64,000 nt of DNA, from contig QPGO01000096.1 in NCBI GenBank assembly GCA_008632985.1, positions 186,001 through 250,000 of the forward strand, read 5' to 3'. The stretch comes from Psammoneis japonica. Lineage: Eukaryota. Shown in pieces: positions 16,938-51,549 of this stretch; within the stretch, counting starts at the first letter, position 1; every line of letters starts with the position of its first letter. A program made the translations under genes and the position numbers. A model generated the notes under the pieces. The model saw nothing but the letters and a program-made list of their open reading frames with translations. It did no database searches and was not told the origin of the DNA.

Positions 16938-17016
16938 TTTTTCTACAAAGGAGCTTGGCGCGTTTCTACGTTGTGGTGAGAGCAGAATTTCTTTTGTGGT
17001 GAGAGCAGAATCTTGT

Positions 17017-21000: not shown

Positions 21001-22330
21001 TTGCATCAGACCTGCAGTGCCCCTGGGACACTTCCACCAAGTTGCTCTTGCACACACACACATCATTGGAAGTTTGGCTTGCTGACCACACGTTGGCTCA
21101 CATTTTGGGGTTTCTTCTTGTGAGTGCACCCCAGCTTTGGGTGGGACCTTGCGCTGCTGAGCTGTGACATTGACAGTTTTTTGGATCATGCTGCATGTCA
21201 TGCACACATGTTTCTGTGTGACTTCAGCATCATTTTGTGGCATTTTGTGGCAAGGACTGAGATGAGCGCACACAAATTTGAAGTGGTCAGCCCCACCTGC
21301 TCATGACTCAGTGCTTTGCCATGGTGAAAATTGCTCAGGAGGAATCTGACGATGACAAAAATGGTCAGAAAACTTCTGCTCACAACAATGTCAGCTGCAT
21401 GGAATTTGCATTCTTTGTTCGTTGGTGCCTCAATTTCTGACTGTTTTGCGCATCACGCAGAGCCACCATGGCTTTGTGTGCAATGCAGTGCTTGGTGTTG
21501 TTTTGGCAAAGTTTGGCAAAGCAACTGGTGCATGCAATGCTCAAAGTTGTCAATTCATGTGTGAAAGAACAAGGAGTGCACATTGCATGCAGCAGATGTT
21601 GTTGTTGGTGGTGTGGTGGAAGTCATCTGACTGGCGTTTTTGTCATTGTCAGACTCCTGCCGCAATTTTCACTGTGGGAAAGTGTTGGGTCATGAGTTGG
21701 TGGGACTGACCTCTTCAATGAGCCACACACTTGACTTGGCCCTTGCACTCATTGAGCGGTCCATCCAACAACTTTTGACATTTTTTCAGCGCGATTCTCA
21801 AATGTCTTCAGAGTCATGCAGGGCAGGTGCATTGGCAAAAACTTCAAGTGGCAAGAGGCACAAATGTGCCACAAACTTGGTCATTCATTTTGAAGACAAA
21901 CACATCCATTGGTTAAATTCTTGCACCATGGAGCTCACACTCAGCATCTGCAGGCCCAATGTCACATGTGCCTGGGGCTGAAAAACGTGTCTTGGGGCAA
22001 AATGACGAGCTGCAACAACTCTGAGACCACTTCACACAATCCAGCTGTCACTTTGGCTCAACTCTGCTTGAGTCTTGAGTGGTGTTTCACAAACATTTCT
22101 CAGATTCTGGCACCTTTTCTGAATGTTTTGGCTGGCACAGTTTTCCAGTGTGCCGCAGCTGCCCAACGATGAGGACAAATGGCACTGCTGCTCCTGCAAA
22201 GACCCTGCCCCTGTGACAGAGCTTTGGACAAGAGAACAGAGGGCTCTGTTGTGCTTGGTCACTGACTTGGGTGATGTGTTGGAACAAACCACACCAAGAG
22301 CCCTCTCTGTCGACTTGTCTGAGTTTTTTT
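18010..22330. other. Old degenerate repeat-derived DNA lacking both TpA and CpG; origin not identified
   Basis: Almost no TA and very few CG dinucleotides over ~4 kb. Overlapping Cys/His-rich ORFs occur in all six frames. Confidence 0.6.
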
Positions 22331-22559
22331 GTCAGTCAGTCGCTCGGCAGTCTTTTGCGTTTTCGACGGTTGGCGTAAACTGCATGCAGGAATTGGCAAC
22401 ATTTTTGAAAGCACTGAACTCCCACGAATCTTCCACACGCCAAATCATGGCATCAATTCTGCCATTGCACACAAAAGTGACAGTGATTGAGAAATTTAGC
22501 AACGGTCACGACACAAACAGCCAATCTCAAAATCTGCGCTCGTTTCGATCTCGATCCCA

Positions 22560-22856
22560 CAACTCGTCGTCTCGCACGATGTGTTTGTTGTTTGCCAAGC
22601 CTGAATGCCGTCATCGCCAAAGGATGGCTCGCCCTTCCTCTGGATTGAGACCTTGCATTTGTTTGGCATTCCACAACTCATTTTGCTTGATGGTGTGTTG
22701 TCTCTCTTTTTCAACTCGTCGTCTTGCACGAGGTGTTGTTGTTCGCCAAGCCGGAATGCCACGACACCCAAGGATGGCTCGCCCTTCCTCTGGCTCTGAT
22801 TGCCTGCTCTTGTTTGGTGTTCCACAACTCATTTTGCTTGATGGCGTGTTGTCTCA
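22560..22856. repeat. Tandem duplication, unit ~150 bp
   Basis: caactcgtcgtct.gcacga...aaggatggctcgcccttcctctgg...ttccacaactcattttgcttgatgg occurs twice. Confidence 0.8.
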
Positions 22857-23086
22857 AATGGCAGTGCAGGTGTCGCCAGTCAAGTCCAGAGGTCGGGGCA
22901 AATCGAGTGTGTCTCTCCGGCCTTGAGTCCGTGTCACTCTTGTGTCTTTGAGTGCAGGAAGTTGCCTGTTCGCTTGACCCAGAAGGGTCACGGCTGTTGA
23001 AACAGACAGCAGCGTTCATCTGCGAAGCAGCAAAAGCTTGCCAAGCAGATCATGCCGCTGACGGAACACAGGTTTGGGGTTCCGTC

Positions 23087-23558
23087 AGTCGTGGTTCGTC
23101 TGTCCACTGACCCAGATTCTCTGTTGTGTCTGTGCTTCCGTCAGTCGGAATTCTTGTTGAAATTCTTTTCACGCCACATCGACTCGATTCTCAAGCCGAA
23201 TGCTTTGGGGATCACAGGCGGTGCTTTGGAGATCACAGGCTTTGCGTGGATGTTGGACCAACCATGGATTGGTTCAGCAGCACTTGGATGATTGTTGTGA
23301 ATGTGGTTGACCCTGAAGTTTGTGCTGGTCTCTAGTGCAAACCTGCGGATCAACCTCTGTTTGGGTGCATTCAGCAGATTCAGTCTGGGCAGCTTGTAAT
23401 TTGGTCACTGGCACTTTTGTGAAAGACCAAATGCTCGTTGCTGCTTGTCAGCAGATTCCATCTACTTGCATTCTGCCTGAGGTGTCGATCTGGAGTGGAC
23501 ATCCAATCGATGCGTTAGGAAGGCACTCGGAGCTTGCGTGGACACGCGAGCTTCGACT
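23087..23558 (+). repeat. 5' LTR (AGTCG...CGACT)
   Basis: Aligns without gaps to 31276-31747. Confidence 0.95.
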
Positions 23559-23561
23559 GGT

Positions 23562-23579
23562 TGGTTCGCCCAATTGGGG
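23562..23579 (+). promoter_or_regulatory. Putative primer-binding site
   Basis: TGGTTCGCCCAATTGGGG begins 3 nt after the 5' LTR and starts with TGG, complementary to a tRNA CCA end. The cognate tRNA was not identified. Confidence 0.5.
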
Positions 23580-24101
23580 CAACTTAACATGTTCTACACT
23601 TCTGGTTGGGGACGCCCAAACCAGAGCAACCCTGTCAATGGCTCTGATGCCATCAGCGCTCCTCATCAACTGCGCTCCGTGCTCTTGACATCAAGTGCTG
23701 CGACTGACTCCGTCAGCTGAATGGCTGGTTCCGCCAGAAGGTTCATTGTTGATTTTGCACGTCCACCATCTCAGGTCCTGCTCCAGATGCATTCCAGCCC
23801 TGGGTGGGAGCTCGCAGTGCTGACGTGTGACAACAACAATTTTTGTCATCTGTCGCATGTTTCGCACGTAGATTTCTGCATGTGACATTTAAAAAAAATT
23901 GTCCAGACTCACTGTTTTGCGAAGCCCCAGACGTTTTATGTGACAAATTTATAGAAACAACAATGCGCCAGTTACATTCTTCAATGTCTGAAGAATGTAA
24001 CTGGCCAAGTAAAAAATGATGTGCTTCAATCATGTGCGAGTTTGTGCGTTCGCAAAATTGCCTCATTTTCTGTTGGCGATCATTGACACTTTAATTGCCG
24101 T

Positions 24102-26450
24102 GTGATTTTACTGCGGAGCTCGCACGCAGAAGTCTACGGGCCCAATGTCACACGGATTCCCACCTGCGTCTGGAACGCGTCTCCACCCCATGGCCCTCCT
24201 GAGACCCAAGAGAGTTCTCCAAGCTTGCACTCTTTGATTGAGAACGTCCCAGACGATTGGTCTGACTCGATGGCTTCAAGCGCGCTGTCGGACATGGCTG
24301 ACGACCCCGAAGTGTTCGAGGATCAGCCTCCTGAGGATCAACCTCCACCGGGGGATGATCCACCACCTCAGGACCCTGACGACCCAGACAACTGGCCTGT
24401 TCCACCCTTGGAACTTTGCCCGGACGATTCGGATGACGACTCGGACGATGATGATGATGAGCCCGCTGCAGGCTCCGGCATGTCGGAAGATGAGCGTCGC
24501 ACCGTTCAGGCCATGGCTGCCATGGCAGCCGCGGTGATGCCGAAGACGAAAGTCTGCAAACCCAAGGCTCCCAAGATGGGGGGGGTTGTCTCCATTGGCT
24601 CTGCTGAGAAAGTTGCTTGGACCGGTGGGAAACCCAAGGCTGACTGGTCCAGATTGGAAACTCCCAACTCCAGTCCAATGTCACCAAACCAGCATCGCTC
24701 CCACCACGTTTTTTCTGCCCAGAAGAGCAAGGCCCACCGCGTTGCCGGACTTTCAACCAAGTTTGATGAGAAGGGAGATCTTGCAACCTTTGAGAAGAAC
24801 GTGATGAAGCATCTCAAGGACTGCGGTTTGGATGTGGCAACTCACCTGCAGGACCCCGAGGACTCAACTTCTGTGACGTCTTGCGTTGAAGGACATCCTC
24901 GGTGTTCCAAATCGAGCGTCGCCCATCTTGTCGCACCTCAACTCACCAAGTGTGACTCCTGCGATTCATCCAATGACAGGGACACCACTGAGTTTCTCAA
25001 GAACTCCTTGGAGGCTGGCCCAGTCGTGCAGCTGGATCTGGAGATGGAAGAGTCGGATTGCTTTCCGAAAGTCTGGATGGCTCTCGTTGTGATCCTCCAG
25101 AGCACGTCCATCGAATGCTTCAAGCAGCTCGAAAAGCAGCTGGAGGAACTCAAGCCCTCCCAGTTCGCCGGTCAGGATCTCTCCCAGCTCCCACCCAAGT
25201 TCAAGACTGCGGCCCAAGAGTCAGATGTTGCGGGTCAGTGCGACCACAAGCCAATGCTTGCCTTGGTCAACGCTTGCCTGGAAGCTGGCGGGGATGGTGA
25301 AAACGGTCAGCAGTTCAAGCATGCCCTTCGCACTGTCAAAGAGAATTTGAGCGAAGCACTTGTTGAGACAGTGCACAAGTCTAAGATGGACACGAAATGA
25401 CACCTTGCGTCCAAGAACCTCACCTGCTCTCAAGTCATTGGGAAGATCCTGGACCGCTGCCACTTGTTCAAGAACAACATGCAGTGGGATCCTGTCAAGC
25501 ACTCGACAGACTCCAAAGCTGCTCCCAGAGCCTTTGGAAACCCAGTGCTTGATCCCTCAGCCACTTGTCAAACGGTTGGAGTTCCACTCACTCAGGCCCA
25601 GTTCAGTGCTCTCTTCCAGCAGACAACTGCTCCCCACAAGAAGACTCCGGACAACTCTCCGTGCAACAACTGCGGCAAGCTCGGACACTGGGCACGTGAC
25701 TGTCCCAACAAGTCCAACGAGGGTGCTGGAAACAACCAAGGCGGCTCAAACCCTGGGCAAAATGGTGGAGGACAAGGAGGAAGGGGCAGGAACCGCTCTG
25801 GTGGCAACGGCAGTCAAGGTGGCAATGGAGGCAACGGTGACGGTGGCGTCACGTGCAACTGGAAGAAGGTCGCGCCTCGTCCCGGACAACCTGAGTCCAA
25901 GGTTGCTCAATGCAGCATGCATGCAGACAAAAGGTCATTTTTGTCATGCCCTTTGTGACATTTAAAGGCTGCAACACGTCACCGTGACACATTGACTCTC
26001 ATCAGTGGCTGTGTGTTGCACTCCTCCCCATGTGTCACGCGTCCATGCGGCTCTTTACTGATGTGTGCTGACACTGCACGGTTTTGGCGGAACAGTGTGG
26101 GTGTGTGCGAAGGAACACACAGAACTGCACAGAGTTTTGCGCATTCGACAGTGATCAACGTTGCTCCAGACAACTCCCACTCAGGGTTTCGAACCCCTGG
26201 CCTCCTGCCTGATGGTTGCGATGAACCACTCCGCTGTGAATTCATGATGCAGCATGCATGCAGACAAAAGGTCATTTTTGTCACGCCCTTTGTGACATTT
26301 AAAGGCTGTGACACGTCGCCGTGATGCGTTGACTCTTGCCAGCAGCTGTGTGTTGCATCAGGGCAAGACTTGGCACTGGTGTGCCAAGTGCCGTCGTTGG
26401 TCCACCACTCGCGGTGCTGCCAAGCATGGGCAGAAGGATGAGTCACCTCC
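24102..26450 (+). pseudogene. copia gag with zinc knuckle, frameshifted and interrupted by a TRIM-like insert
   Basis: AWTGGKP motif; CNNCGKLGHWARDC (CX2CX4HX4C); GKTWHWCAKCRRWSTT resumes after the insert. Confidence 0.85.
25911..26357. mobile_element. TRIM-like mini-element: 110-bp direct repeats around a 227-bp non-coding core, nested in gag
   Basis: 25911-26020 and 26248-26357 are gap-free direct repeats with TG...CA ends. Flanks TCAA/TCAG form an imperfect 4-bp TSD. Gag reads ESKVAQ|GKTW across the site. Confidence 0.7.
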
Positions 26451-27228
26451 CGTGCCGACTCAGCAGGCCAACACCCTCTTCCTGGATCCTGGAGTGTGGC
26501 ACGCGGAATTCGACTTTGAGCTGGGATTCAAGGATGCACTGCTTGGACCATCTCAGGTTGTGCTCACCTTGATCCACCCTTTTGCATCTCCGCTGCTCTG
26601 TGCTGCCTTGGGACATTGGTGTTCTCAGCTTCCGGCCAACTGGTGGATTGCTGGAGTCGACGCCATGATCTGGTTCATGGCGGTCATTGCGTCGCACATC
26701 TCGTCACATTGGCATCTCTGTCCTTTGCCCGCTGTCTGGTTCCTTCTGCTTCTAGCGGCTGTGTTCTTGCCGTCTGAGTTTGAGCGTGATGCTCGTGCCA
26801 AAGCCCTGCGTGCTCCTCCTCCACCCCCTCCCCCTTGCTGGGCCACACGCCAAGGAACCAAGTTCTCCAAGTGCCGTGAACATTGGGGGCGTCATTGCCT
26901 GCGGGAGCTTCAGCCTTGCTGCGGACGCCGCCACACTCCACCCAGGCACCCCTCTCTCGTTCAACGAGCTCGTGGGGTGCCTGATGTCAAGCAGCGGCAG
27001 CGCAATCAGTTGCACGACCTCAGTGAAGAGGTCAAGGCCTTCGAGCGGTCACTCACCTTCATGCGCGCACGTCCTCTCCTCGGTTGAGAGGGAGAAGCCG
27101 GTCATCCCAAGGGCACCAGACGTTGCAAGAGTGCCGCTCTAAAAAGGGGTCCCGACACTCGTCATCGAGGTTGTCGAAACCTCAATGCACCCACGTGTCA
27201 CCCTGTTGGTTCGAACGCTGCGCACGGT

Positions 27229-30200
27229 TTGACGCGCTCCCAGCTTGACGCCATCTGCTCCCCAGCAGCCAAGGCTTGTCTTGCCAATGCCGACGTCCCG
27301 TCACCTCTACTTTCTGTTGCTGGTGCTCTCAAGGCGGCATTCACAAGTCCCAAGGAGACAAAGGAGGTGGTTAAAGAGCACACCTTCCCGGTCATTTGGG
27401 ACTCAGGAGCAAGCGCATCGGTCTCACCTTGCAAGAACGACTTCGTCGGGCCTCTCGAGAAACCACCTGTCGCTGTCCGGCTCCAAGGTGTTGCAAAGGG
27501 GCTCCATGTGGCAGGTGTTGGACATGTTGCTTGGTCTTTTGTTGATGTTGCTGGGGTGCTTCGGACCCTGAAGGTTCTGGCCCGCTACATCCCCAAGTCC
27601 AAGGCTCGTCTCTTGAGCACGACCAGTCTCTTGCAGACGCACTCGGATGAGTCCATCAAACTGCTGTCGGACCGCACCATCCTCAGTGGATCCAAGAATC
27701 GTGAACAAGGACACACAGGCGAGGTGTTGAAGTGTTGATTGAACCTTCAACTAACCTGCCAGTTGGATGGGCCTGTGCGAATCAAGCAAGTCAACAAATT
27801 TGTGAGGAGTTTCATTTGACGTTGTCGACGATTGTGGAACACAATCACAATGTCTCACCTGCTGAAAAGGAGCCACTGCGCTGGCACTTTCGTCTCGGGC
27901 ATCTGAGCTTCCGAAAGGTGCAATTTTTGATGCACACGGGAGTTCTGTCCCACTCCGAGGGCACCCGTCATTTGCATGAACGTGCTTGTTGCATTGATCG
28001 TCCGCCCCTTTGTGCCGCATGCCAACATGGAAAACAAAAATGCCGTCCCAGCCCCGGAAAGACTTCTCGTGTCGTCAAGGATCGAGCTGGAGCCTTGAAG
28101 AAGGATCAACTGTTCCCCGGTCAACGAGTTTCGGTTGATCATTTTGTTTGTTCCACTCGTGGTCGTCTGAAACACACTTTTGGAAAGGAGAGCATAAAAC
28201 ATCAGCATTCAGGCGGAGCAATCTTTGTGGATCATGCATCTGGTTGTGTCAACGTTCAACATCAAACTCACCTTGACACCCATGAAACTTTGACGGCCAA
28301 GAACGCATTTGAGGCCCATTGTCGTGATCATGGCATCATTCCCCAAGAACATCTGAGCGACAACGGAAAGGCATTCACGTCGGCCAATTTCAGGGTTCAC
28401 TTGGAATCTTTTGCTCAAGTTTCAAAGCATGCCGGTGCAGGAGCTCACCATCACAATGGGGTTTGTGAACGAGCAACACACACCGCGATGTTGATCGCGA
28501 GAAGCATGATGTTGCACACGGCGATCCATTGGCCTGATGTTGCGGACGTCACTCTTTGGCCTTTGGCTGTGGACCATGCTGTCATGCTTTACAATGCGAT
28601 GCCAGACCCATCTGCGGGTCTCAGTCCACAGGATGTGTTCACCCAGACGCGTCATCCTCACTCTCGGTTCCAGGATTGTCATGTTTGGGGGTGCCCTGTT
28701 TGCGTTCTTGACAAAGCCCTCGCCGATGGAAAGAAACTGCCAAAGTGGAAACCCCGCGTGAGTCGGCATGTCTGTGTGGGATTCAGCCCCGAGCATGCCT
28801 CGTCAGTCCCACCAGTCTTGAGTCTTGAAACGGGAGCCATCACTCCACAATTCCATGTCATTTTTGATGATTGGTTTGCAACGGTTCCTGCCAATGCTGG
28901 CTCATCACCTGCCATTGGGTCTCCGGAATGGACGTCTCTTTTCGGAGACAGTGTGCATCAACACACCATGGATGATGAAGAGCAGGCTGATGTCAACATC
29001 CGTCAAGAACACCCAGAATGTGAGCGCCAATCCAAGGAAATCCGCAAAACCGTCACCCGCCGGTCGCCTCCCAAACCCTTGCAGGTCCCTCCTCCGGCTG
29101 CTCAGGCACCAGTGTCTTCTCCCAAGCCCCCTCGAGTCCCACTGTGGAACCCCCGGTCCCTGAGGTGGAGTCTGTGCCTCCATTAGAGTCTCCTGCTGAA
29201 CCCGTGGCTTCAGACTTGCCTCAGAGGGAGAGAGCACCCGCCGCCAACTCAAATGCCCCACCAAGTCCTCAGAGGGAGCCTCCTGCCCCTCAAAGTCTTT
29301 CTTCGGATCTCGGTCAAGAGAGGGAGTCACCACCTGTGGCTCCACCCAGCGCACAACGCCCCTCTCCAACCCCAGTTCGTCGCTCAACCCGGACTCACGC
29401 TGCACCTCAGCGGTTTGGACATGATGGATCTCAGGGACACGGATGCTTGTCCCACTTCATTGATTTCCATCATGCACACAAGTTTGACCACGGTTGCAAC
29501 ACATCCATGACCACTCCTGCCGTGTGCAAGGCGTCGGCGCGTAAAGTCAAGGATCCGGGTGCGCCATCGTGGGACGAGGCCATGCGCTCTTCCGATTGCG
29601 ACAAGTGGTTGAAAGCGGCTGAGATCGAGATTGCAGCACTTGTCCATCAAGGAACGTGGATCGAGGCACCCATGTCCAATGCTCAAACCAAGATCCTTCC
29701 CGGCACTTGGGCATTTTGTCGCAAGTGATCACCTTCAGGCGAGATCAAGAAATGCAAGGCTCGCCACTGTTGTCGCGGCGATCTGCAGGAAGGAAGTCTG
29801 TTTGACACTTGTGCACCGGTTGCAGCCTGGAGCACGGTTCGAGTGTTTTTGGTGTTGAGTCTTGTTCTTGGATGGCACACGGCATCCGCCAATTTCCAGT
29901 CTGCATTCGTTCAAGCAGCACTTCCCGCAGAAGAACCAGTTTGGGTTCATCTTCCACGAGGTTTCAGCTCGACGAAAGGACCCAAGACTTGTCCCAAGCT
30001 CGTCAAGAGTCTCTGTGGACTCTCTTTGGCTCCAAAGTTGTGGCACGAACATTGTCCACAAGCCTTCTTGGACTTGGGTTTCATCCAAAGCGAGTGCGAC
30101 CAATGTCTCCTGCTTTGCCATGATTGCATGGTCTGCCTGCATGTCGACGATTGCGGGATCAGTGCAGCGCAGGAGTCCACCATTGATCAGCTGACATTTC

Positions 30201-31129
30201 AGCCACGCGAGAAAGGATTTGATTTGACAAAGGAGGGCAGTTTTACCAAGTTCTTGGGTGTCAAGTTCGAAAGGAGAGACGATGGTGCCATCAAGTTGAT
30301 GCAGAAAGGGTTGATTGACAAGATCCTGTCAGCAACCGGCTTGGTTGACAGCAAACCAAACTTGCTCCCTGCGGCGTCCCAAGCCCTCGGCACTGATGCG
30401 GACGGAGATCCCATGCAGGAGGAATGGAGCTGTCCCTCCATCGTTGGAATGCTCCCATGCTTGTCCACCAATGCCCATCCTGACATTTCCCTCGCCATCA
30501 GTCAGGTTGCATGCTTTGGTTCCAACCCGAAACAGTCGCGCTCAACCGCCGTCAAGACTCTGGTCCGCCACTTGAAAAGGATGCATGATCAGGGGATGCT
30601 GCCATCTCCAACCGGTTGTTTGGATCTTGATTTGTGGGTTGATGCCAATTTTGCTGGTCTCTGTCGCTGCGAAGCGGACTCTGATCCGAATTCTGTGAGG
30701 TCATGCACCGGACACATCACAACTCTCAGTGGATGTCCTTTGGTGTGGAAATCGCAGCTCCAGTCGGCTGTTTCCTGCTCCACCCTCAAAGCTGAGCATC
30801 AAGCCGCCTCCCATGCTCTTTGGACTCTCCCACCTTTGAAGAACCTGCTCCTTGAGATCGTCTTTACCTCAGACATCTCCCAAGATCTCAGGACTTCGGT
30901 TCGTGCGCGCATGTTCGAAGACAATCAAGGTGCTTGCCACCTGGCTGCCAACCACCGCATCACCAATCACACCAAGCATTTTCTCGTCAAGTGGCATTGG
31001 TTCTGGTCGCATTGTGATGAGTTTGGTGCAATTAAGGTGGAATCGGCCGAGCAACTCGCCGATTGTCTTGCCAAGCCTTTGACTCGAGAGCTCTTCCAGA
31101 ACAACCGGTTGAAGGTCCAAGGGTGGCAG
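27229..31129 (+). pseudogene. copia pol (protease, integrase, RT, RNase H) with frameshifts and systematic Tyr->Cys/His
   Basis: PR: VIWDSGAS. Pre-integrase: WHFRLGHLSF. IN: VSVDHF, SDNGKAF, HHNGVCER, WGCPVCVL. RT: KCKARHC, KSLCGL, CLHVDD. RH: WVDANFAG, FEDNQGA, QLADCLAKPL. Confidence 0.95.
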
Positions 31130-31266
31130 CACTTTGGAAGCATCGCTTCCTTCATTTGTTGTGTGTTGTGGCTCGGTCAAGATGTGGGAGCTGTGCTCTG
31201 AACTTGCACCAATTGTGTGAGCTTTCTCGTTTGCGATTTTCTTGTTGGTTGCTGGAATCTGTGAAT

Positions 31267-31275
31267 GAGAGGGAG
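31267..31275 (+). promoter_or_regulatory. Polypurine tract
   Basis: GAGAGGGAG directly abuts the 3' LTR. Confidence 0.8.
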
Positions 31276-31747
31276 AGTCGTGGTTCATCTGTCCACCGAC
31301 CCAGATTCTCTGTTGTGTCTGTACTTCCGTCAGTCGGAATTCTTGTTGAAATTCTTTTCGCGCCACGTCGACTCGATTCTCAAGCCGAATGCTTTGGGGA
31401 TCATAGGCGGTGCTTTGGAGATCATAGGCTTTGCACAGATGTTGGACCAACCATAGATTGGTTCAGCAGCATTTGGATGATTGTTGTGAATGTGGTTAAC
31501 CCTGAAGTTTGCACTGGTCTCTAGCACAAACCTACGGATCAACCTCTGTTTGGGTGCATTCAGCAGATTCAGTCTAGGCAGCTTACAATTTGGTCACCAG
31601 CACTTTTGTGAAAGACTAAATGCTCGTTACTACTCGTTAGTAGATTCTATCTACTTGCATTCTGTCTGAGGTGTCGATCTGGAGTGGACATCCAATCGAC
31701 ACGTTAGGAAGGCACTCGGAGCTTGCGCGGACACGCGAGCTTCGACT
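31276..31747 (+). repeat. 3' LTR (AGTCG...CGACT); retains many more TpA than the 5' LTR
   Basis: Aligns without gaps to 23087-23558. Confidence 0.95.
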
Positions 31748-32634
31748 CCGTCGTATCAGTGACATGATATGGTAAGTCTTCACTCGTAGGGAGTGTTGAT
31801 TTAGAACGCGGTTGACTCGCAAGTTTACTTGTCGTCTCCGTAGTACGTCCCCCCTTTTTCTTTTTTTGGGATGGTGATCCACCCCGAAAATAGGAAAAAG
31901 CTTGAGCTCCATCTTTTGATGGCGCTCTTGAGGCAACGTTACCCTGCGCTACCGATTTCTACATCAACTTTTGACATTGGTGTGTCTCAAATTTTTGAAA
32001 CACCCTTTGAAACCTTCACAATAGAAGTAGAAAGACTCTAAAAGTACACTGCAGCAATCTTTATTTTCGTGTAATTCATTCCGTACGTATGTCAAATGGA
32101 CTGCGATGACGGTCGTAGCGCTTGCGATGTCGTTGCGTACTTCCTTGCCTCTAGAGTAGAGTCCACGCCGGGTTATTCGTTACGGTATGCCCCGTCGTCG
32201 ACACATGCTGGACTATTTCGGCTCTGCTTGCCTGCTTGCCACAACATTCAACAACTTGAACAGAAGAGTAGCGACTTGAACAGAAGAGCAGCAAAAGATG
32301 GTAAACGATAAAGGATACAGTATTTCGTTATTGAGCATTAACATCGCTAGTTTCGAATTTCGATTCCTTCATCATACCGGTAGATCCATCAACGACCGAT
32401 ATAGCTTCTCCTTCTTCATGCTGCGCTTGAAGAGAACCGTCGTCACTACACTTGCACAACATACCACAAGCCCACTTGCGAGCGCCGCCCCTGCACTATC
32501 GCGTCCCCTACGATATACTCCTCCTCCGCCAGCGTTGTCGTTGGCGATGTCCCTTTCATTCTTTTAGCCTACGAACTCTCTAGAGCCCAACTCTCAACTC
32601 CTGGTGCCATTGTATTCAAGCTCTCTCACTACCA

Positions 32635-33745
32635 TCAACTCCTGGTGTTTTGATTCTGCGCCGCAATCAAACGAGCTGCTCGCATGTCTTCACGAACCTG
32701 ACGACAACGGTGACCGGCATCACTCTCAAAGACCCCCAAAGCCACTGGCATCCAGTCGTCGAAACTAGCTATGCGTCGGTCGTGAGAAGGGTGAGTCGAA
32801 ATGAATTCTGGAGGCTGCGCTCCCTTTGCCCCCTCTTTCATCGCTCTGGATATACCGACATTGGAAGAATAGAGGCAGTAAGCAGAGGAGCAACGCACAA
32901 GATAGCACAAATACCACTGTACGAAAGCAAACAACTTACGCAAAAACACGTTTGGCAGCACGTGGATCATAGCAAGCCTGAGCAGCCAAGAATATTCCAA
33001 TTTGATCCGCCTCGGTTTCAGCTTGTCTAGAATTAGGAAGCTCTTGCAGCAACTGAGCTGCCGGGAGAAGTATGGACGACAATACCCCTGAAGGATCCAC
33101 TAAGAACAACAACCGAGCAGCGATATTGACAACAATGGAGCCGCTCATTTTTTCGCCAGCATGGCGCGCAATTCCATGAGCTAATTCATGTCCCAACACA
33201 GCGGCCAACTCATCTTCGTCTCGAACGTATTGGAAAAGGCCCGTCATGACAAACACATGGTTGTTGGGCAGAACAAAGGCATTGACCATGTCGGAACGCA
33301 CAACTGTGAAAGTATACGGAGAAGCCGAAAGACTTGCAGTAGGGTGGGATTGAGCAAAGACTCGAGTAGCTCCAATGAGACGTTGGCCGACTCGCTGAAC
33401 CGTCTGACTAGCAGGGTGCTGCGGCGGCAAAATAGCTCCACGAAACTGCTGAAGGAGCTTCTTGTACTCCTGATCTCCCAATTGCCGTTCAAAAGCAGGT
33501 GACGTTGCTATCCAACGCTTTCGGTCTGTAAGGGGGGCTTCCTCCAGAAAGGCATAGTATCCATACACCAACGTCCCAGTCACACCCACAGCGGGTAACC
33601 AAACATATGCGGGCAGCGAAGAAGATGTGCTACTACCTCGACCGCTGCTCTGCCGGGAACTCGACAGAAAAGAGGACGGTAAGCGGCTTCGACGCTGAGA
33701 AGAAAACAAACGGCGACTGCTGCCATACATCATGGTGAATGCCAA
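32635..33745 (-). CDS. OMA1: OMA1-like mitochondrial metallopeptidase (peptidase M48), two exons
   Basis: NAFVLP, ELAAVLGHELAH, SRQAETEADQIG and PEFISTHPS motifs. A GTAAG...CAG intron at 32939-32846 joins the two ORFs in frame. Arg/Ser-rich N-terminus. Confidence 0.85.
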
Positions 33746-34323
33746 AGATATACCGTACTGTATCTAACGAAGTAAAAAGTATCGCGGTCTCATATCCACC
33801 CACCGTGAGAGGTCGGACTGTTCAGTTGCCTGCCTAATCCATTGTCCTCAACTTTAACAGCAGCAAGACTTCGGCTTCCGCCGAGGAACGTGTGCAGACG
33901 GCGAATCATGATGAGACGATACACTTCAACAGAGCGATTTTTAGGTATCTAAATAGCTGCGTTTGCCAAAGATTCCATGGAATCTTTTTTATGTTGATCC
34001 TCAGCGCACACCTATTCCCGCCAATGGAATCTTTGATCGTGGTGTCAAGTCGACTTCAAACAAGTTGCGGCTGCAAAGGACGACGGGCTAGAGTTCGAGT
34101 CCTTGCAACTATCAAAACGAAGTCAAAGCTACTGTTGCAACAAAGCAATGACAAAAAAGGCGCCAAATTCAAAGTGGTATTCTCTTTCTCTAGAGGCTAC
34201 AGAAGGTTGTTTTCGGCCTGAGCACACTGGCTATCAACCTTCCGCCATTTCGTATTGAATACAAAGAGCGCAATAGTTTTGATTTTGCATATCTTGTTTT
34301 ATATTCAAGTCATGAGCACCATT

Positions 34324-36047: not shown

Positions 36048-37045
36048 ATGGTTTCATCGTTGGATACACTGGCTGACGAGCTTCTCTGTAAGCTATTCGA
36101 GTGGGTTCCTCCAGAGGAGCTGCTTCTGTCTGTATCCCTTGTCTGCAAGCGCGTTTTCGTGCTTACAATGCAAGAGACATTTTGGCGCAGATATCCCTTG
36201 TTTACCTCCATAACCACGAATCAGCATTTGACGCTGAACCAGATGCAACGTTGCTGTATTTGGGCGGGAGTAGCAAAGGACTCAAGAATAAGCGACCCTC
36301 CTTCTTATCTCGGTGTTGGGTCAGTTCTCCTTGCCAAAGAGACCGCCAAAGACACGCCGTTTCGACGTGTTCATGGATATGTGTGTGCGGCCTCATCGAC
36401 GCACAACGGAACTGAAACACTGGATAATGTGTTACCGTCGTCTCTGGGGGAGGAAGACAATCGTCGGTCAACACTGAGACACCTTTTTGGATACAGGGCC
36501 GACTGGTGGAGTTCAGCGCCTTGTCCGTCACAAGACTCTTCCGAGGTGCTTCTTTTTACAACGAAGTATCCAACCGCTTTGATTACCAGAGTTTGCATTA
36601 GGCCCTTGATCGATCCTTTTCTTCGAAACGTCGTGTACACGTGGAGAAAGACAGTTATCCGAGCGTATCACGTTGCAACCACGTTTCAGCCTTTCAAATA
36701 CCCTTCCTTTTCTCTTGGTCCTGATCACAAGCCTCTCTGTTTCAAACATGCCAGCACAGAAGCTGAAAATGGCATTCCTGACAAGGACACTATTGATGCT
36801 TTGCTGCATGATTACGAGCCGGTCTATGAGTCGAAGGCATACAACGTTCCGGTAAACGAGGCAGTGACACGTTGGTGTACGACTTGCCCGGTGTTGTGGC
36901 CAATGTGGTCACGATTACTCTAGTTGGCAAGAATTATGAGCAATTTGAAGGCTCCGGACAGTACTACGCTTGCGTCAGTAACGTTGAATGCCTGGGCATG
37001 CCACTTCTCCCAACTCCCAACCACCACGTAAGGAATGAGATATAA
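36048..37045 (+). CDS. F-box protein, apparent frameshift near 36865
   Basis: N-terminal LDTLADELLCKLFEWVPPEELLLSVSLVCK. ASST and WWSS motifs. An alternate frame gives VVTITLVGKNYEQF...YYACVSNVECLG to TAA at 37045. Confidence 0.7.
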
Positions 37046-37199
37046 CGGATTGCTTCGTGGTACCTTCACTAGCGACCGCACTTACGACACATGTAAATAA
37101 AGTATTTTGTAGAACCATGCTGTAGAGTAAGAATGAGAAGACAGCTCTCTTGACTTTAAACACTGGTAAAACTCTCGCTAGCTACGGTAGTGCGGAGTG

Positions 37200-37573
37200 C
37201 TTGCCAGCTTCGCTTTTCGACGTGACTCGCTTCAGCAAGCTGCCATTGACAATGCATCTTCTGACTAACATTTTTGTGTTGTGGTGGGTGGACCGATGCT
37301 TGCAATTTGCCCATGAATTTCCAAAAAGATGTTGTGTGGTCTCCAGCACGTGTTTTGACCATTGCAGAGGGGGGCTGACACAGGCTGATTGTGTCTCTCC
37401 TGTCAGTTGCCATGAGTTGTTCTGGAAGCAGGCTTGTTCATTCAGAAAAGGCAGCTGCAAGGAAAAATCACCATCTTGGCTGGATTGCATGGCAACATTC
37501 ATTGCAAGGCTGTTGAATGAAAAAATTGAGTCAGTGTCTGCCCCCCATGAAGCTGGTCTGATTTGGCCACCAT

Positions 37574-37608
<35 letters not shown>

Positions 37609-40600
37609 CAACAACATCTCTGCACAACAGAGAAACAAAGGATGCTGACAGTTGTTGGAAAAATGCTGCCACCAACCCAAGCCAGGAATTTTTCATGCAT
37701 GTTGACAATCAACAAGAGGTCTTCCAGAGCACAGACAAGGCTGGCTGGCAACCATGATGATCACATGCTCTCAATGCTGGCTGGCATTTGTCGTCAGCAT
37801 TGCCTGCTGTGAGCAATGCAACTGTCCTCCACAGAGAACCACCACACATCAGCAGCAGCTGACTTTCTCAGATTTGATGGCAACTTTTCTGTGGCTCCTT
37901 AAAAGCCACCAGACAGGGTCTTGCTCTGAACAATGGCTCCTCCTCTTGCAAAGCATGAAAAATGTGCTGCTGGAATTGGAAAGGCTCGCATGCTCACAAG
38001 CCAGCAAGTGCTGCTGCAACAATCACAGTGGGATGCTCTGCAGGCCTGTTCATCTGGAAAATGCAGCTGCTCTTGTTCAGAGTTAAAACTTGCTTGCCAG
38101 ACAGAAGCTTTTGACAACCGACCATTCAGCAAAGTGAGAAACCACCAGACTCACAGAAATTTGGTCTCACAGCACACGGGCTCTTGACAAGATTTGTTTT
38201 GACCTCATTGACGACTGCAAATTCTGGAGTGCTGGTTGTCAACTGAGCCAGCAAAGTGAAAAAAAAAGTAACATGTGGTTCATTTCTGCACATTTTGTGA
38301 TTTTGGTTTCTGACAATGTCTGCTTTCCACCCTGGCAGTGTTCAATGTTTGGTGCATGCTCATGTTCCACACACTGTCACACCGTTGCATTTGCTCTCTC
38401 TCTCTCTCTCTGCTCTTTGAGCCACCACCCCATTGTCTTTCCCATTGTCTCTTGCAGTCTGTCTTGCATCTTTTGGTGTTCCCAGCTGTGCTGGCATTGC
38501 ATCATGCTCCAATCTTTCATGTTTCAAAAATGTTTGGTTTTTGTGACAGCTTTTTGTTGTGAGACGTGACAGCAAAAAAATGTGCCTGGCAGACAACAGC
38601 AAAGAAGTTGTCAGTTTGGCATGTTTTCTTTGTCAAGCATGTCACAATGTGCTGCTGCATTCTTTCTGCTCACCTGTGTGTGATGTTGCAGAACTTTGTT
38701 TCTCACTCTGCTTGGCCATTTTCGTCAACTTGTCTGAGTTTCATGAAGCAAAAAATCATGAAAGGAAAACATTGCTTTGTTGTCATTTGCTGCAAGCTGC
38801 CTGATGCTCCCTTGTCAGACTTCTGACCTCTTCTGATCTTTCCCATGGCTTTTCTTTGTTGGTGTGTGCAGAATCCTGTTGGCGCTTTCCCCCCCTGCAA
38901 TGTTGTCATTGTTTTTGTGGTGCTTGGATGCACCCCATGTTTTTGCACTGTTTTGTGCAGCAGATGTGTGCTTTCTTTTGCTGCAGAGCTCTGAGCAAAT
39001 CAGTCTGACAGCCATTGCCTCTGTGTCATTTTGCAAGTGGCGGTCACTGAAAAAGCCTTTTGCTGCACTTCTTTTTGAAGTGCCAAGTCATTTGAGTCAA
39101 CTCAAATGAGTCATTTTGTTGGTCTTCATCTCGCCAACACAGCTGTTTTGCTTGTGAGATCTCAGTTGCTCTGCAGGATGCTGAACATTGTTTTTTAATC
39201 AGATGCAGCACACATCTGTTTTTAAAAAAGATTGATGTCTCAGTTTTTTTGTGATCTCAATTGGCTCTTGTCAAGAATGAAATTTTCACATTTGTGCCAG
39301 TTCATGTGGCTTGTTTGTGTCTGCAGGGTTGCCATTGCAGCTGGTGTTTTTGCAGCTGATTCACACATGCACAACAACCTTTGTTGCTGTTGCTGAGCAC
39401 TCTCTCATCATGGTTGGAACTTTCAGGCAGGAGGTTGGAAGAGGTCTTGGAGCTGGTTGTGCAGGTGGTTGCAGACAAGGGGGTGGTTGAGCAAGAGGTT
39501 GATTTGGTCAGCATGGCCACAGTGCTGGGTGTGTGTGGGCAGCAGCCCCCAGAGACATGGGGGTGCTGCAGCTGCAGCACCTCTTGCCCATGTTCCTCCT
39601 CCCAATGCAGGTGGTTGCTTGTGCCAGTGCAGTCTTGTCACCAGCAGGTTGGCACACACTTGAGCTTCCCAGCTTCAATGCAAAGCAGCCCGTGGTGGTG
39701 CCAACCAGCCCAATGAGCAACAGCACACATGCACAGCAACCTTTGTTGCAGTTGCTGCACTCTCATCATGGTTGGAGCTTGTGGGCAGGAGGTTGGAAGA
39801 GGTCATGGAGCTGGTTGTGAAGGTGGTTGCAGACAAGGGCTGGTCAAGCAAGGGGCCAACTGGGTCAGCATGGCCACAGCACTGGGCACGTGCCTGCAAA
39901 GAGCTGGGGCAGCAGCCCCCAAAGATGTGGGGGTGCTGCAGCACCTCCTGCCAATGTTCCTCCTCCCCAAAACAAGCAGTTGCCTGTGCCGGTGCAGCCT
40001 TGTTGCCAGCAGGTTGGCACAAACTTGAGCTTCCCAAAGCAGCCCCATGATGGTGCCAGCTGACCCAACAAGCAACACAGCAGGCTGAGGGCACTGCTGG
40101 CAAAATCTGGTGGACCCCAAGTGACACCCAAAGAACTGTGGCTGATTGTCAAGCAGTGCATGGCCGGTGTTGTGCAGCTGCAGTGACCTGTCATGTCCTC
40201 CCAGCAGCCAGAAGCACACACTTCAAACTGCCAGCTCCAGAATGAGAGGACCCCATGACGGCACCAGCCAACCTGACAACAGCAAGCTGAGGGCATGGGA
40301 GGTCTGTTGTGGGTTGTCTTGTGCAGCTGTGGCCCCAAGCCACATTGTCCAACAAGAGGAGCAGACTTGAGCCCCCCAACTCCACAGTGAAAGGGCTGCA
40401 TGATGGTGGCAAAAGCCAGCCAACCCAAAAAGCTGCAAGCTGAGGACACTGGCAGCATGAGTGGGCCAGCACAGGTGCAACACTTTAAGAGCTGTTGTTG
40501 GGCACTGCAAGAGGCTGATCTTGTGGTGGTGTTGGGGCCCCATGTCACCTTGTCCCCAACAGCAGCAGACTTGAACCTCCAAACTCCAGGGTGAAAGGGC

Positions 40601-43450
40601 CCCCAATGACAGCACCAACCAACCTGACAATGGCAATCTGAGGGTTCTGGTGGTGTTTGGTGGGCCCCTGCCATTGTTCCTTAAACAGCAGCAGACTTGA
40701 CTTCCCCAGATCCAGAGTGCAGAGATCCTGTCATGACATCGCCAACCCAACAGCTGCAAGCTGAGGGCACTGGCAGTGTTGGGTGGCCCCCGGTGGTGTG
40801 ACTTTAAAACCTGCAGTTGAGCACAGCAGGGTTGATCTTGTGGCACTCTTGTGGCCCCATGTCCCCTGTCCTCAATGGCAGCAGACTTGAGCTTCCAAGT
40901 TCCAGAGCTGTGGCTGAGCATTGCAAGATTGATCATCTTGTGGTGTTGTGGCCCCACTTTGCCTTGTTCCCAACACATGCTTGAATTTTCCAAACTCCAG
41001 AGTTGCTTGTTCAAATGCTTGATTGCTGGATGGCAGCGGGTGAGCGAAGCTTCAAAAAACAATGCGCTGGGAATGCCAGAAATGTGGGGTTGCTTTGCAG
41101 TGGCAAAATGGCTTGAGGAGGAGAGTGGAGAAATTTCTGGCAGCATTTTTGAAACAATTTTCTCTTTGTTAGAAGCAATGAAGAGCTGCAATGAGAACAG
41201 CAGGTGAGCTGCCCTCCATTTCATCTGGATCTAAAGTTCAAGCAAGAATGGATCTCATGGGATCATGGGAAGATTGGCTGGGGCATGAGTCAGAAATGTA
41301 AAGTTGAGCTTTGTGTGAGTTGCACGCCATGCAATTTTGGAGGCTTGCAACCTTGTCAAGCTTTCCTGCGACACAAGTTGTTGAGTGAGACTTTGTGGCC
41401 AATCTTGCTCATGACACAGTTGTTTCAATGTGGTGTCAATTGTCCATGGCTGCTGACCTCTGCACAAAGCCTCAATGTCCAGCAAGTTTTCTGCCACCAA
41501 AGCCTGAGCTGCAACTGACACTCATGCAGCCCGGGTCCTTGAGTCAGGTGTGGAGAGAAGCAGTGCTCATCCTGGCACCAGCGCTTGAACAAGCATGAAC
41601 AATCAACAACCCTTTGCAAAAGAGATGACAAAGCTGACACACTCACAGAGCAACAAGGACAAGCTGCACAGATGGTGAGTGCCATTTGGTGCTTGCCAGC
41701 AAAAATCCATCACCACAGCCAAAACAGAGTGCAATGCGCATGAAGGCACAGACAAAACAAAAACTTAAAATCACATTGCAGCCATGTTGGCCCAGATGAC
41801 TTGGCACTCAAAAAGTGTTTGTGGGGCATTTGTTGTCAACCAAAACAGCTTCAAAGTGCCATCAAAGATTGACCCGCGCTTCTGTCTGGGTTGATGTTCT
41901 TGGAATTTGTCAAATTGTGACAATGGGGTCAATTTGGTGTTGACAGCATTTGTGGCAGTGGGAAGCATGAATGATGACAGGGATCAAAAATGACAACACG
42001 ACCATTGCGGGGACTGCTTGGCATGGCAAGCTGGGCTCCAGAGCACAAATTGATGCTTGATGATGGGAAGAAAGGACTCAAATTTTCAGCTGCAGCATCT
42101 GGCATCAAAAGGGAACAGGTTTAACAACAAAAGCTTGTTTTGAAAGGAGAGTCTTTTTTTGCAGTTGTTGGTCACATGATGGGGACACAGTGGATTGTGC
42201 AGCAAATGTGACGACAGGGGGGTGCACCGTTGTCGTGCAAACAACAGATTGGTGGCTGAGTCACATGGTGCTCAATGCAACAAAGAGAGACAAATGCAGC
42301 AGAAACACTGAAAAAATAGGTGACGGGCAATTGAGCTGAAGCTCTTCCAGACAAACATGTGCCACCTCTGAAAAAGATGCTGGGCCACAAAACAAGATGT
42401 TGCAAATCCATGCCCCCCCACCGGAAAAATCATCTGTCAACTTTAAACATCAACTTTGGCGATGCCAGATTTGTGGTTAAAAATGAGCCAGTGTCAGAAC
42501 ATTGCTCAGAACCACAACTGCAGTGACTGCCTTGGTTGAGTTTTGACAACTGTGTGATGCCTGTGGAAAGTGCAGCAACAGGTGCAAAAATTTTGTTTCT
42601 TGTTGATGGATCTTCTTGTCATGCACAAAAACATGTTGCAGACATTGCAGCTGTCAAGTGGCAAGCAAGTGACTGCGCATCACCAGCCAAATCCCACCCC
42701 ACTTTTGTGCAGGACTGCTTTGAGTTGCAGCTGTCAAGCCCATGACTTTGCAAGCATGCCTTGGCCTCATGAGAACTGTCCTTTCTTCTCTGTTGTTCCC
42801 AGGCCACAGTGGAAGACAAAGACAGAGCTCCTGACAAGGGGGCGCTGTTGGCAATTTTTTGCTCTGTGGTTGAAAGCCTGTCTGTTGTGAGTCTCAGGCC
42901 CAAAACATGCCGGCAGTCATGGCACAGAGACTTCTTGGTTTTGTTGACTTGTTTGTTGCCAGTGTTGTCACACAACTGCTCTGGCTGGCAAGAATCAAGA
43001 GCAGTTTGAAAGCTCTGCAGAGTGCTGCACCTGCACGTTGGTCTCATTGATTGCCCAGGCATGCCACTTTTCTCAACCTCATTTGAGGAGTTGGGCATTG
43101 CTTTTGTCATGCAAATCGGAGCTGGGGGGCAGATGTGTGACAATGTGGTCAGATCTCATTTCTTGCTTTCAAGTTGTTTTGACCTGGTTTCCAATGCACA
43201 CACTTGCGTCTGCCTTTCAAAAAGAGGGGCTCTTTCAATGAATGCAAATTTCTGTTTTGTGAAAGCATCTGACTGGATGCCAGGGGCTTCAGGGGTCTTT
43301 GAGAGTGAAAGTTACCAGGTGCAGTAAAAGAAAGATCAACCCGGTCATTGCACCAGCACTTGTTTGGCAGCCCAGCAACCAGCAACCCACCTGCCAAGGC
43401 AGCACAAAGATCCCACGGAGAGCAGCAATGCTGCTGTTGCCATGCTGTGA
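37200..43450. other. Old degenerate repeat block lacking TpA and CpG, with a (CTG)n tract and internal direct repeats
   Basis: Near-absence of TA and CG over ~6.2 kb between two normal gene blocks. (CTG)10 near 37576-37605. No domain confidently recognised. Confidence 0.65.
39362..40060. repeat. Two direct repeats of ~360 bp, followed by shorter related units to ~40900
   Basis: cacacatgcaca.caacctttgttgc...caggaggttggaagaggtc.tggagctggttgtg at ~39362 and ~39724. The motif gcagacttga.c recurs at ~40360, 40565, 40690 and 40880. Confidence 0.75.
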
Positions 43451-43662
43451 AAGAGTCACTTACAGCATCTCACCCATGTAGCAATGCAACACCAGTCGTA
43501 CAATAAAGGCTTCAAGACTGCCATTTCTAAGTTCCTTTACGTACGCTCTATGATAGTAACCGACATACACACAGCTCCACTGCGAGACGAGCCTGACATG
43601 ATTAACGAGTCAGTCCCATTCCATACATTGACACAATTCTTCTAACATCTGATGCACACAAC

Positions 43663-45058: not shown

Positions 45059-46138
45059 CTATCGGAAATCGAGCAGGAATTGTTTGATTTCACTCCAATC
45101 TTTTGCTCTCCAAATTGTCTGTGTGTTTACACGATTGGCATTATACAGGGAAAGAGTCGACAATTGAATATTGTACTGTTTCGCAATGTCGGTCAATGTT
45201 TGACTCTGCCCCACAACAATGCCTATATCGGCTTCAAGCAGTCCTAGCAAGTCGGTCTGGGAATCTCCAATATAGACAATGAGTGGCTTTTCGTCATTTA
45301 GATCTCGTCGCAGGGATGCAATGCGTTCCTTCTTGGCAGATGCTCCGGGAACTACATAAAATTGACCATACCCAACCAAAGCAGCAAATGAGCATTGTAT
45401 TCTTGCCATATTGCGGTGTTTATTGCATTCATTACTTACCATCTAGTTTCACAATACCGTGTTCATCCACACTGTTGGACCATATCGGTGGCGTGATTCT
45501 GAAACGTTTACATGCTCTTCCAACACGGCCTGAATGAGCGATGGACACCAATTTATGCTCAGGACAGACAATTCCCATCCTTTTGCACACGCCGCAGTCA
45601 AAGCGGGTCCACAGCCATCTTGTAACTGTGAAGCTTCTCGTAAATGGTCATGTCGTTTCAACAATTCAAGAGCTTGCGAGGATTCCAGAGGCAAACCGGC
45701 CAAACATCGTGATTGACTGACTTGCCGTGTTACCGTGGTTGATACATTGTCAAGCAACGTAAGAGCCTCTTCTAAATCATGTGGATACGTTGATTCTTTT
45801 GCTTCCAGATACAATCGAAAATACTCTTGTTCCAATTCTCGAAAGGTCTCGAGACGAGCTTGGCGTGTCGTTTCGTCGTCTGCCGCGTGAAGAGAAGCCA
45901 ACTTTGGGAGTAGTGGCGTCGTATCGCTTTTGGTGATTGTCCCGTCAAAATCCACAACTAGACACGCTCTTGATGATGCAGCCATGGCAGAGACAGACAC
46001 AACTAGTATTGAAAACGTCAATAACAGCAGCAACATCAATGTTGACAGAGAATGCGATTGATGGTGTGCTGTGAAGTATTGCTTCTCGCGTATCGTCGAT
46101 GAGTCGATGAGTGTGACGGTGATGTGGCGGCGCAACAA
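45059..46138 (-). CDS. HAD-superfamily phosphatase, one intron, apparent frameshift near 45505
   Basis: Motif I VVDFDGTIT, LSINW, and motif IV YIGDSQTDLLGLLEADIGI. An alternate frame IWSNSVDEHGIVKLD leads into a GTAAG donor. The true start is uncertain. Confidence 0.8.
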
Positions 46139-51543: not shown

Positions 51544-51549
51544 CTGCAA

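Follow-up and report, generated by a model that had tools for sequence, protein, structure and literature searches.

Fungal repeat-induced point mutation (RIP), as in Neurospora, changes CpA to TpA and so raises the TA content of its targets; it requires duplicated sequence and normally affects both copies. Deaminases of the APOBEC3 and ADAR type act on RNA or on single-stranded cDNA before integration and are strand-specific, and both ADAR and ADAT favour U or T before the edited A. A hypermutation of selfish DNA that is specific to TpA has so far been reported once, in a 2026 preprint on the chlorarachniophyte Bigelowiella natans, and no enzyme or targeting rule is known for it (10.64898/2026.01.13.699255). 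According to the accessible text of that preprint, integrated giant-virus and virophage regions of mutation-accumulation lines mutate about 1000-fold faster than the remaining genome, almost only by changes of TpA to TpG or CpA; the viral region is single-copy and silent, the activity appears in some lines only, and an ADAT2-like adenine deaminase is proposed (Mettrop et al., 10.64898/2026.01.13.699255). Here we describe a 64-kb stretch of DNA (contig QPGO01000096.1, positions 186,001 to 250,000; hereafter the window, with positions counted from its first letter), which is eukaryotic nuclear DNA, most likely of a diatom, and in which the two long terminal repeats (LTRs) of one Ty1/copia retrotransposon have lost TA to very different degrees. 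Our best-supported reading, to which we give a probability of about 0.55, is that sequence similarity alone does not decide which DNA is mutated and that a bounded domain does.

The copia element spans 8.7 kb on the forward strand (23087-31747). It has 472-bp LTRs with the termini AGTCG...CGACT, a polypurine tract (PPT) just before 31276 and a 5-bp target-site duplication, CCGTC, with matching copies at 23082-23086 on the left and 31748-31752 on the right. The Pfam domains Pol_BBD, gag_pre-integrs, rve and RVT_2 follow each other in the order gag-protease-integrase-reverse transcriptase (RT). Among the Ty1/copia hallmarks tested, only the primer-binding site was not identified. Expressed as observed/expected dinucleotide ratios (o/e), which we calculated per block for TA, TG/CA and CG, the 5' LTR (23087-23558) has 4 TAs and a TA o/e of 0.14, and the leader and gag-protease-integrase-RT interior (23559-31275) has a TA o/e of 0.05 over 24125-31275. 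The 3' LTR (31276-31747), which faces a gene, has 17 TAs and an o/e of 0.54.

The two LTRs differ at 34 positions, all of them transitions, with no transversion and no indel, and they are 100 % identical when reduced to purines and pyrimidines. All except 2 of these differences (32/34) lie in TA, CG, TG or CA dinucleotides. A preliminary description of the window had proposed that the copy keeping TA is the gene-side one at 14 of about 15 polymorphic sites, and we find exactly this: the 3' LTR keeps TA at 14/15 sites (binomial p = 0.001) and the 5' LTR at 1. Three more sites are TA in both LTRs, and 5 sites, which we call doubles, have TG in the 5' LTR where the 3' LTR has CA. Counted together, TA is retained at 4/23 sites in the 5' LTR and 17/23 in the 3' LTR (19 vs 6 sites lost, p = 0.0003), or at 4/18 and 17/18 if the doubles were CpG originally. 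CpG follows the same direction, with 5 sites kept only in the 3' LTR and 2 only in the 5' LTR; private CpG losses number 5+7 on the block side and 2+1 on the gene side (12 vs 3, p = 0.035) and thus fall on the same copy as the TA losses. Because identical LTRs were mutated so differently, mutation cannot be predicted from homology alone; the simplest reading is a domain that has an edge.

The DNA on either side of the element shows the same asymmetry. The copia inserted into a target repeat whose left part (22134-23086, with a 151-bp tandem unit) has 2 TAs and an o/e of 0.04, with no TA at all in 22497-23333. Its right part (31748-32322), lying between the 3' LTR and the next gene, has 33 TAs and an o/e of 0.77, 12 of these TAs falling in 31754-31960. 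The contrast between a TA-free left and a TA-rich right flank had been noted before and holds. We aligned contigs of public sequencing runs with the window at a likeness cut-off of 88 %; single-copy genes have a depth of about 56 in these contigs. The left part of the target repeat has a summed contig depth of 2839-4491 and the bin 31773-32339 on the right a depth of 2899. Contigs with the joints 23080->31747 and 23083->31750, which correspond to the empty site, have depths of 605 and 155 vs about 56, indicating that the copia sits inside another multi-copy repeat. By depth the right flank is therefore repeat DNA, and yet it is unmutated. The copia family itself amounts to roughly 10-25 copies by contig depth.

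The gene that follows (32323-33858, minus strand) encodes a Peptidase_M48 (Pfam E=3.8e-27). The contigs of run X2 that cover it skip 94 nt (32846-32939, joint 32845->32940), and the skipped interval is bounded by GT..AG. We read these contigs as spliced RNA and the gene as expressed. Run X2 leaves most of the copia interior uncovered, a blank on which we base no conclusion.

A RIP-like gain of TpA from CpA in the 3' LTR would produce the same polymorphisms, so the polarity of the changes has to be established separately. We aligned the RT open reading frame (ORF) at 29729-31201 (490 aa) with 60 of 120 listed homologues. All 8 of 8 conserved tyrosine columns are Cys (4) or His (4) in this ORF, YVDD reading HVDD, and the ORF contains no tyrosine at all vs about 3 % in homologues. 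Changes from Leu to Pro (CCA), Ile to Thr (ACA) and Val to Ala (GCA) are also compatible with TA to CA, and changes from Arg to His or Cys and from Thr to Met are compatible with CpG decay. A second and unrelated element (ORF 52804-54555) has tyrosine at none of the 11 aligned tyrosine positions of its best homologue, and His or Cys at 7/11. TA is therefore being destroyed, a direction opposite to the TA gain of RIP. The same footprint exists in other organisms: 3 of the 120 copia RT homologues, from other public assemblies (P0192, P0202 and P0193), show Cys or His in 6, 5 and 4 of the 7 columns where tyrosine is conserved, with a tyrosine content of 0.6-1.3 %. A metagenome scan with the copia RT returned only distant relatives (33-57 % identity) with a normal TA o/e of 0.50-0.76, and no LTR outgroup.

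The LTRs also date the process. Restoring the 6 inferred lost sites gives the 3' LTR about 23 TAs, which is a normal density. Since LTRs are identical at insertion and the 3' LTR is near normal in TA, the element arrived unmutated and lost its TAs in place. The LTR pair (944 bp) has since accumulated 25 changes at TA sites (15 if the 5 doubles were CpG), 7-17 at CpG and no transversions. Per site, the loss is 25/46 site-copies for TA vs 7/50 for CpG, or 15/36 vs 17/60 with the doubles taken as CpG. Both strands are equally affected: TG:CA is 622:635 over 24001-31000 and the tyrosine codons changed to Cys and His 4:4, which rules out strand-specific editing of cDNA or RNA as the main cause. Copies were mutated independently, as position 23265-6 is TG in the 5' LTR, TA in the 3' LTR and CA in four other LTR contigs among the variants listed (40 of 875).

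The preliminary description had the mutation fade at the gene-proximal border, with the retained TAs clustering toward the outer part of the 3' LTR. The string it quoted is present at about 31612-31655 and holds 7 TAs, but the clustering is refuted. The 3' LTR lost TA at LTR positions 160, 236, 249, 310, 322 and 424 and kept 17 sites between positions 46 and 430; the mean position is 283 for lost and 282 for kept sites (Mann-Whitney p = 0.86). The local cluster arises because TA sites happen to lie there. Nor do we observe a fade. The last site of the interior that can be dated, at about 31064 in a tyrosine codon, has been mutated, whereas the LTR's first site, at 31322, is kept, which places the switch within a 258-bp interval holding the PPT/LTR junction.

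Four further repeat pairs in the window spare the gene-side copy, with TA kept only on the gene side vs only in the block at 10:1, 10:0, 6:1 and 2:0 sites. The first pair is A1 (1-728, minus strand, TA o/e 0.37), which covers a TauE/SafE-like gene's 5' part together with its upstream region, and its duplicate A2 (5836-6565, minus strand), which lies inside the transposon block and belongs to an ORF (5562-6371) with a TauE Pfam match (E=1.1e-11). A2 lost 10 TAs and 7 CpGs, A1 1 and 1. The second is a direct repeat of about 270 bp (36756-37017 vs 42809-43080), of which the left copy keeps 10 TAs and 7 CpGs that are lost in the right copy, with no TA kept in the block copy only; the two copies may be old LTRs or a duplicated target. 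The third, 55567/15782, gives the ratio 6:1; in this short pair, as in the second, the two copies lie on opposite sides of a border. The last is the border zone of region Y, where in the first ~170 bp next to A the copy Y1 keeps 2 TAs and 4 CpGs lost in Y2, and the reverse occurs at no site.

Taken together, the proposal that position matters stands in part. That homology alone does not set the outcome is borne out by the LTRs and by the four other pairs; a fade at the border, which had been suggested as well, is contradicted by the step and by the lack of any gradient inside the 3' LTR. In our best-supported reading, the copia inserted with normal TA content into another repeat at the edge of a block of presumably silenced, transposon-rich DNA. 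Hypermutation acting in place converts TpA to TpG or CpA (A:T to G:C on either strand), with a slower decay of CpG to TpG or CpA alongside. The 5' LTR, the interior and the block-side flank were then driven almost TA-free, and the 3' LTR and the next ~575 bp of the repeat, facing an expressed gene, were largely spared. The targeting would follow a bounded domain seeded on particular elements, with an edge resolved to about one nucleosome.

Several observations weigh against this reading. A pure chromatin edge gives no reason why the step should coincide with the PPT/LTR junction, and there is no gradient of TA retention inside the 3' LTR (Mann-Whitney p = 0.86). The step borders elsewhere in the window, 4/6 of the borders, could simply be the ends of elements. 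The pair comparisons are partly circular, as one copy was picked for lying in a TA-free block, and selection on a functional gene may have protected A1. All comparisons come from one 64-kb window, and the public sequencing runs represent one sample, perhaps the source of the assembly itself, and are no independent support. Nor is position sufficient by itself. There are 13 transversions between the copies of A and 0 between the LTRs (P=0.0003), so the duplication of A and Y is older than the copia; A2, deep in the block, nevertheless keeps 9/19 TAs, compared to 4/23 for the 5' LTR (p = 0.049) and about 3-5 % for the interior of the copia, so that the older sequence is the less mutated. Finally, an island of 308 bp (23817-24124) in the otherwise TA-free copia leader has 10 TAs, a TA o/e of 0.37 and a CG o/e of 1.12. 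It sits between two copies of a 10-bp direct repeat, GGAGCTCGCA, holds a perfect hairpin with a 17-bp stem (23967-24005) and falls in a bin with a contig depth of 91049. The island may have been inserted later, as one of the very many copies of a short element, in which case hypermutation would be episodic. A2 and the island imply that the identity of the element or the timing matters besides position. In our reading, particular elements seed the targeting and context bounds it; distance alone does not set it.

Some of these observations could also be explained by targeting through homology or pairing, similar to RIP with a different chemistry, if the pairing partner lacked the 3' LTR or if short isolated homologies (the 472-bp LTR, the 575-bp flank) fell below a length threshold. 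The step would then lie at the interior/3' LTR junction as seen, sharp borders would be expected where homology ends, multi-copy copia would be mutated more than two-copy A2, and the spared right flank has indeed been severed from the rest of its repeat by the insertion. We nevertheless consider this account unlikely, as the 3' LTR forms one uninterrupted stretch with the 8.7-kb element and exceeds every other part in copy number, yet keeps 17/23 TAs vs 4/23 in the equally long 5' LTR, as A1 and the other gene-side repeat copies are unmutated, and as the hypermutated viral region of B. natans is single-copy in the accessible text of the preprint (10.64898/2026.01.13.699255). Alternatively mutation may come in episodic, patchy tracts that missed the 3' LTR through chance or timing, with no causal part played by gene proximity. 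The TA-normal island, the half-mutated A2 and the strand runs of private changes (5' LTR p = 0.027; 3' LTR 8/8 on one strand) are in line with such tracts, as is the activity of only some B. natans lines described in the preprint (10.64898/2026.01.13.699255). Chance should not, however, spare the gene-side copy in 5/5 repeat comparisons within the window and leave all gene stretches untouched, and we regard this possibility as rather less probable still.

It is improbable that an unmutated copy recently replaced the 3' LTR, perhaps with its flank, through gene conversion or recombination, or that the 3' LTR is an assembly chimera. A family of roughly 10-25 copies could supply the donor, and the step coincides with the start of LTR homology. 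But the LTRs show no transversion or indel across 472 bp, the matching 5-bp target duplication is intact, the 3' LTR carries 8 private changes of the hypermutation type and the adjacent flank, which is not LTR, is TA-normal too. Among the contigs listed, none bridges the junction of the 3' LTR and its flank. Editing of the element's RNA or cDNA before integration by an ADAR- or APOBEC-like enzyme, with the region 3' of the PPT shielded as the first part to turn double-stranded, would account for a step at the PPT. It also matches the private changes, which are of the minus-strand type in the 3' LTR and mostly of the plus-strand type in the 5' LTR (16:8), as for editing of strong-stop DNA (Fisher p = 0.0024). 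The balanced interior (622:635) and the 8 CA-type changes of the 5' LTR speak against it, the left flank outside the element (o/e 0.04), A2 and an inverted-repeat element are depleted as well, A2 and Y2 lost TA after their duplication, and the near-total TA loss is far beyond one round of editing; we therefore give this explanation very little weight. Least credible of all is an artefact of base calling or assembly at modified bases in transposons. In its favour, miscalls can arise systematically where DNA is modified. Against it, TA-free DNA is matched exactly by contigs of a public run, possibly the source of the assembly (for example a 389-bp contig on 37621-37969 with 0 differences), a balanced TG/CA mix with site-specific LTR differences is unlike miscalls, and three database homologues from other assemblies show the same replacement of Tyr by Cys or His.

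The surviving TAs show a strong flank bias. We compared 140 TAs surviving in the blocks with 849 TAs in gene stretches. The survival odds range from 0 for ATAT through 0.008 for ATAC, 0.013 for ATAG, 0.021 for GTAC, 0.022 for ATAA and 0.033 for CTAC to 0.092 for GTAA, 0.127 for CTAG, 0.138 for CTAA and 0.42 for TTAA. This fits an additive preference for a purine (R) before the T and a pyrimidine (Y) after the A, with RTAY most sensitive and TTAA refractory.

The private changes of the LTRs are in part clustered by strand. All 8 of 8 in the 3' LTR are of the CA type, including both TA to CA and CG to CA, compared to 16 of the TG type and 8 of the CA type in the 5' LTR (Fisher p = 0.0024), where they form strand runs (runs test p = 0.027). 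No strand clustering was found in A2 and Y (p about 0.6), and the heterogeneity of TG:CA between 500-bp windows is modest (chi-square p = 0.002 for blocks and 0.06 for genes). That A and C changes share strand-coherent events is only a hint.

By analogy with what is proposed for Bigelowiella, the chemistry would be deamination of adenine in DNA by an ADAT/TadA-like enzyme, and we infer that the boundary is chromatin-based. We put forward tentatively a more far-reaching possibility: that diatoms carry a chromatin-guided DNA adenine-editing defence preferring R-T-A-Y, which would erase every TpA, and hence Tyr, TAA and TAG codons, from silenced transposons in place, seeded on particular elements and stopping at most about one nucleosome from active genes. 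Deamination of C at CpG may belong to the same strand-coherent events, which would point to a dual A/C DNA deaminase, and together with Bigelowiella this might represent an ancient genome immunity of the stramenopile-alveolate-rhizarian (SAR) lineage.

The copia block is one of several in the window, which alternates TA-poor blocks with normal gene stretches. At least four blocks are TA-free, with a TA o/e of 0.02-0.09 and a TG/CA o/e of 1.5-2.0, compared to 0.58-0.61 for TA and about 1.0 for CG in gene stretches, none of which is TA-depleted. By CpG the blocks fall into two grades: Y1, Y2 and 37270-43310 are nearly CpG-free (CG o/e 0.12-0.20), and 6566-17024, the copia and 49340-55250 retain CpG (0.67-0.75). 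The further transitions listed in the preliminary description are all present, at about 730-860, 37190-37266, 43313-43460, 49333 and 55253-55400. Most of these other borders are steps within 100-150 bp; for example, 18 TAs lie in 49201-49335 and none in the following 300 bp. At the gene-side edges of the CpG-free blocks (729-900 and 37200-37350) a zone of ~100-170 bp keeps CpGs and a few TAs, and the width of the CpG and TA transition there is about one nucleosome. No tRNA genes were found in a search for them as candidate barriers.

On the left of the window, Y1 (729-5560) is an old TA-free and CpG-poor block (TA o/e 0.02 and CG o/e 0.14 over 860-5560), and Y2 (17025-22130) is its second copy (0.02 and 0.20 over 17160-22130). 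A and Y together form a unit of about 5.8 kb that is tandemly duplicated (1-5835 vs 5836-6565 plus 17025-22130), with a 10.46-kb insertion (6566-17024; TA o/e 0.09, CG o/e 0.75) exactly between A2 and Y2. No protein family could be identified in this insertion. Most TG/CA sites of Y are common to Y1 and Y2, which indicates that Y was already TA-free before the duplication.

To the right of the M48 gene, the block at 37270-43310 is free of both TA and CpG (TA o/e 0.04, CG o/e 0.12), has step borders and is bracketed by the ~270-bp direct repeat described above, the left copy of which (36756-37017) overlaps with the last part of an F-box-like ORF. Just within the block, at 37577-37607, a (CTG)n run comprises about 10 units. 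The segment 37443-38000 is TA-free at the single-copy depth of 59.8, a value to be read with the 88 % likeness cut-off in mind, past which old copies would have diverged. The last block (49340-55250; TA o/e 0.08, CG o/e 0.73) holds ORF 52804-54555 on the minus strand and perfect 67-bp inverted repeats without TA (50155-50221 and 55184-55250) that flank about 5 kb. The homologues of the ORF, one at 35 % identity (E=7e-83) and 26 weaker, match no Pfam family, and the inverted-repeat element (50155-55250) may be an uncharacterised DNA transposon. Its inverted repeats are still identical inside a mutated element.

TA-free DNA without TAA and TAG produces long ORFs in many frames. A Pfam scan of 20 block ORFs at E<=0.5 gave only one match passing its own family cut-off, the TauE of ORF 5562-6371. 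The longer ORF 6519-9542 (1007 aa) has no homologue and no Pfam match; we read it as a false ORF, which could arise because TAA and TAG are lacking, and set it aside as a gene. The origin of the window is suggested by an M50B peptidase ORF (46123-47121), whose best matches have at most 67 % identity. Its named diatom matches, at 50-58 %, are from Grammatophora, Nitzschia, Fragilaria, Thalassiosira, Cyclotella and Epithemia, together with records whose prefixes we read as Seminavis and Pseudo-nitzschia. A feature-based protein atlas labels the clusters nearest this ORF as fungal; we set this label aside, as the sequence search gave diatom proteins.

A saturated footprint of TpA hypermutation in a diatom-like genome widens the known range of the phenomenon to a major phytoplankton group; our literature searches found no report of it in diatoms. 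The identical LTRs and the duplicated gene-transposon border are natural experiments that set homology, element identity and chromatin domain against each other, and from the contrast between sensitive RTAY and refractory TTAA follows a concrete prediction for the biochemistry of candidate deaminases. A further consequence is practical. In TA-free DNA the only stop codons are TGA, resulting in long false ORFs and unrecognisable transposon proteins by which annotation is misled.

Among the systems that we compared, RIP resembles the window as a genome defence in which transitions in a dinucleotide context inactivate transposons, and its tracts can be strand-coherent. We excluded it as the family to which this process belongs because its polarity is opposite, TA being destroyed here (19 vs 6 losses in the LTRs, 10 vs 1 in A2 and A1), and because it normally affects both copies. 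Decay of CpG at 5-methylcytosine, including that of methylated diatom transposons, shares the loss of CpG to TpG or CpA in the same blocks, down to a CG o/e of 0.12-0.20 in the oldest, biased to the copy that loses TA; such decay spares TpA, whereas here TA is lost equally fast or faster per site. APOBEC3 and ADAR can also make the LTRs of one element differ through clustered deaminase-type transitions, but in the window the two strands are hit to the same extent, and flanks and DNA outside retroelements are affected.

The signature of the window matches the TpA hypermutation of B. natans. In both, as far as the accessible text of the preprint goes, changes are almost only A:T to G:C at TpA on either strand of integrated foreign or selfish DNA, leaving low TpA with high CpA and TpG. 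Here 15 LTR differences are at TA and 10 more changes lie in the doubles, with a separate CpG component. The activity is confined to selfish DNA except that the embedded gene fragment A2 is partly hit, and it acts on integrated DNA, as at insertion the LTRs did not differ and had normal TA, and as the left flank and A2 show such losses too. Transposon Pfams are enriched in the TpA-depleted coding sequences of B. natans, like the transposon targets here. Diatoms, boundaries and flank context did not turn up in term searches of the preprint, though its supplements might hold flank-context data; CpG decay and LTR asymmetry, for which no term search was made, were not met in its Results and Discussion. 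Judged by the same accessible text, the differences are that the host there is a rhizarian and here a diatom-like stramenopile, that the viral region has a TpA o/e of 0.45 compared to 0.02-0.09 here, and that the targets here are transposons with an embedded gene fragment. To what that text describes, the window adds the CpG decay, the preference for RTAY over TTAA, the step borders and the LTR asymmetry, and we propose flank preference, a slower co-occurring CpG decay and weak strand clustering as new descriptors of this class of hypermutation.

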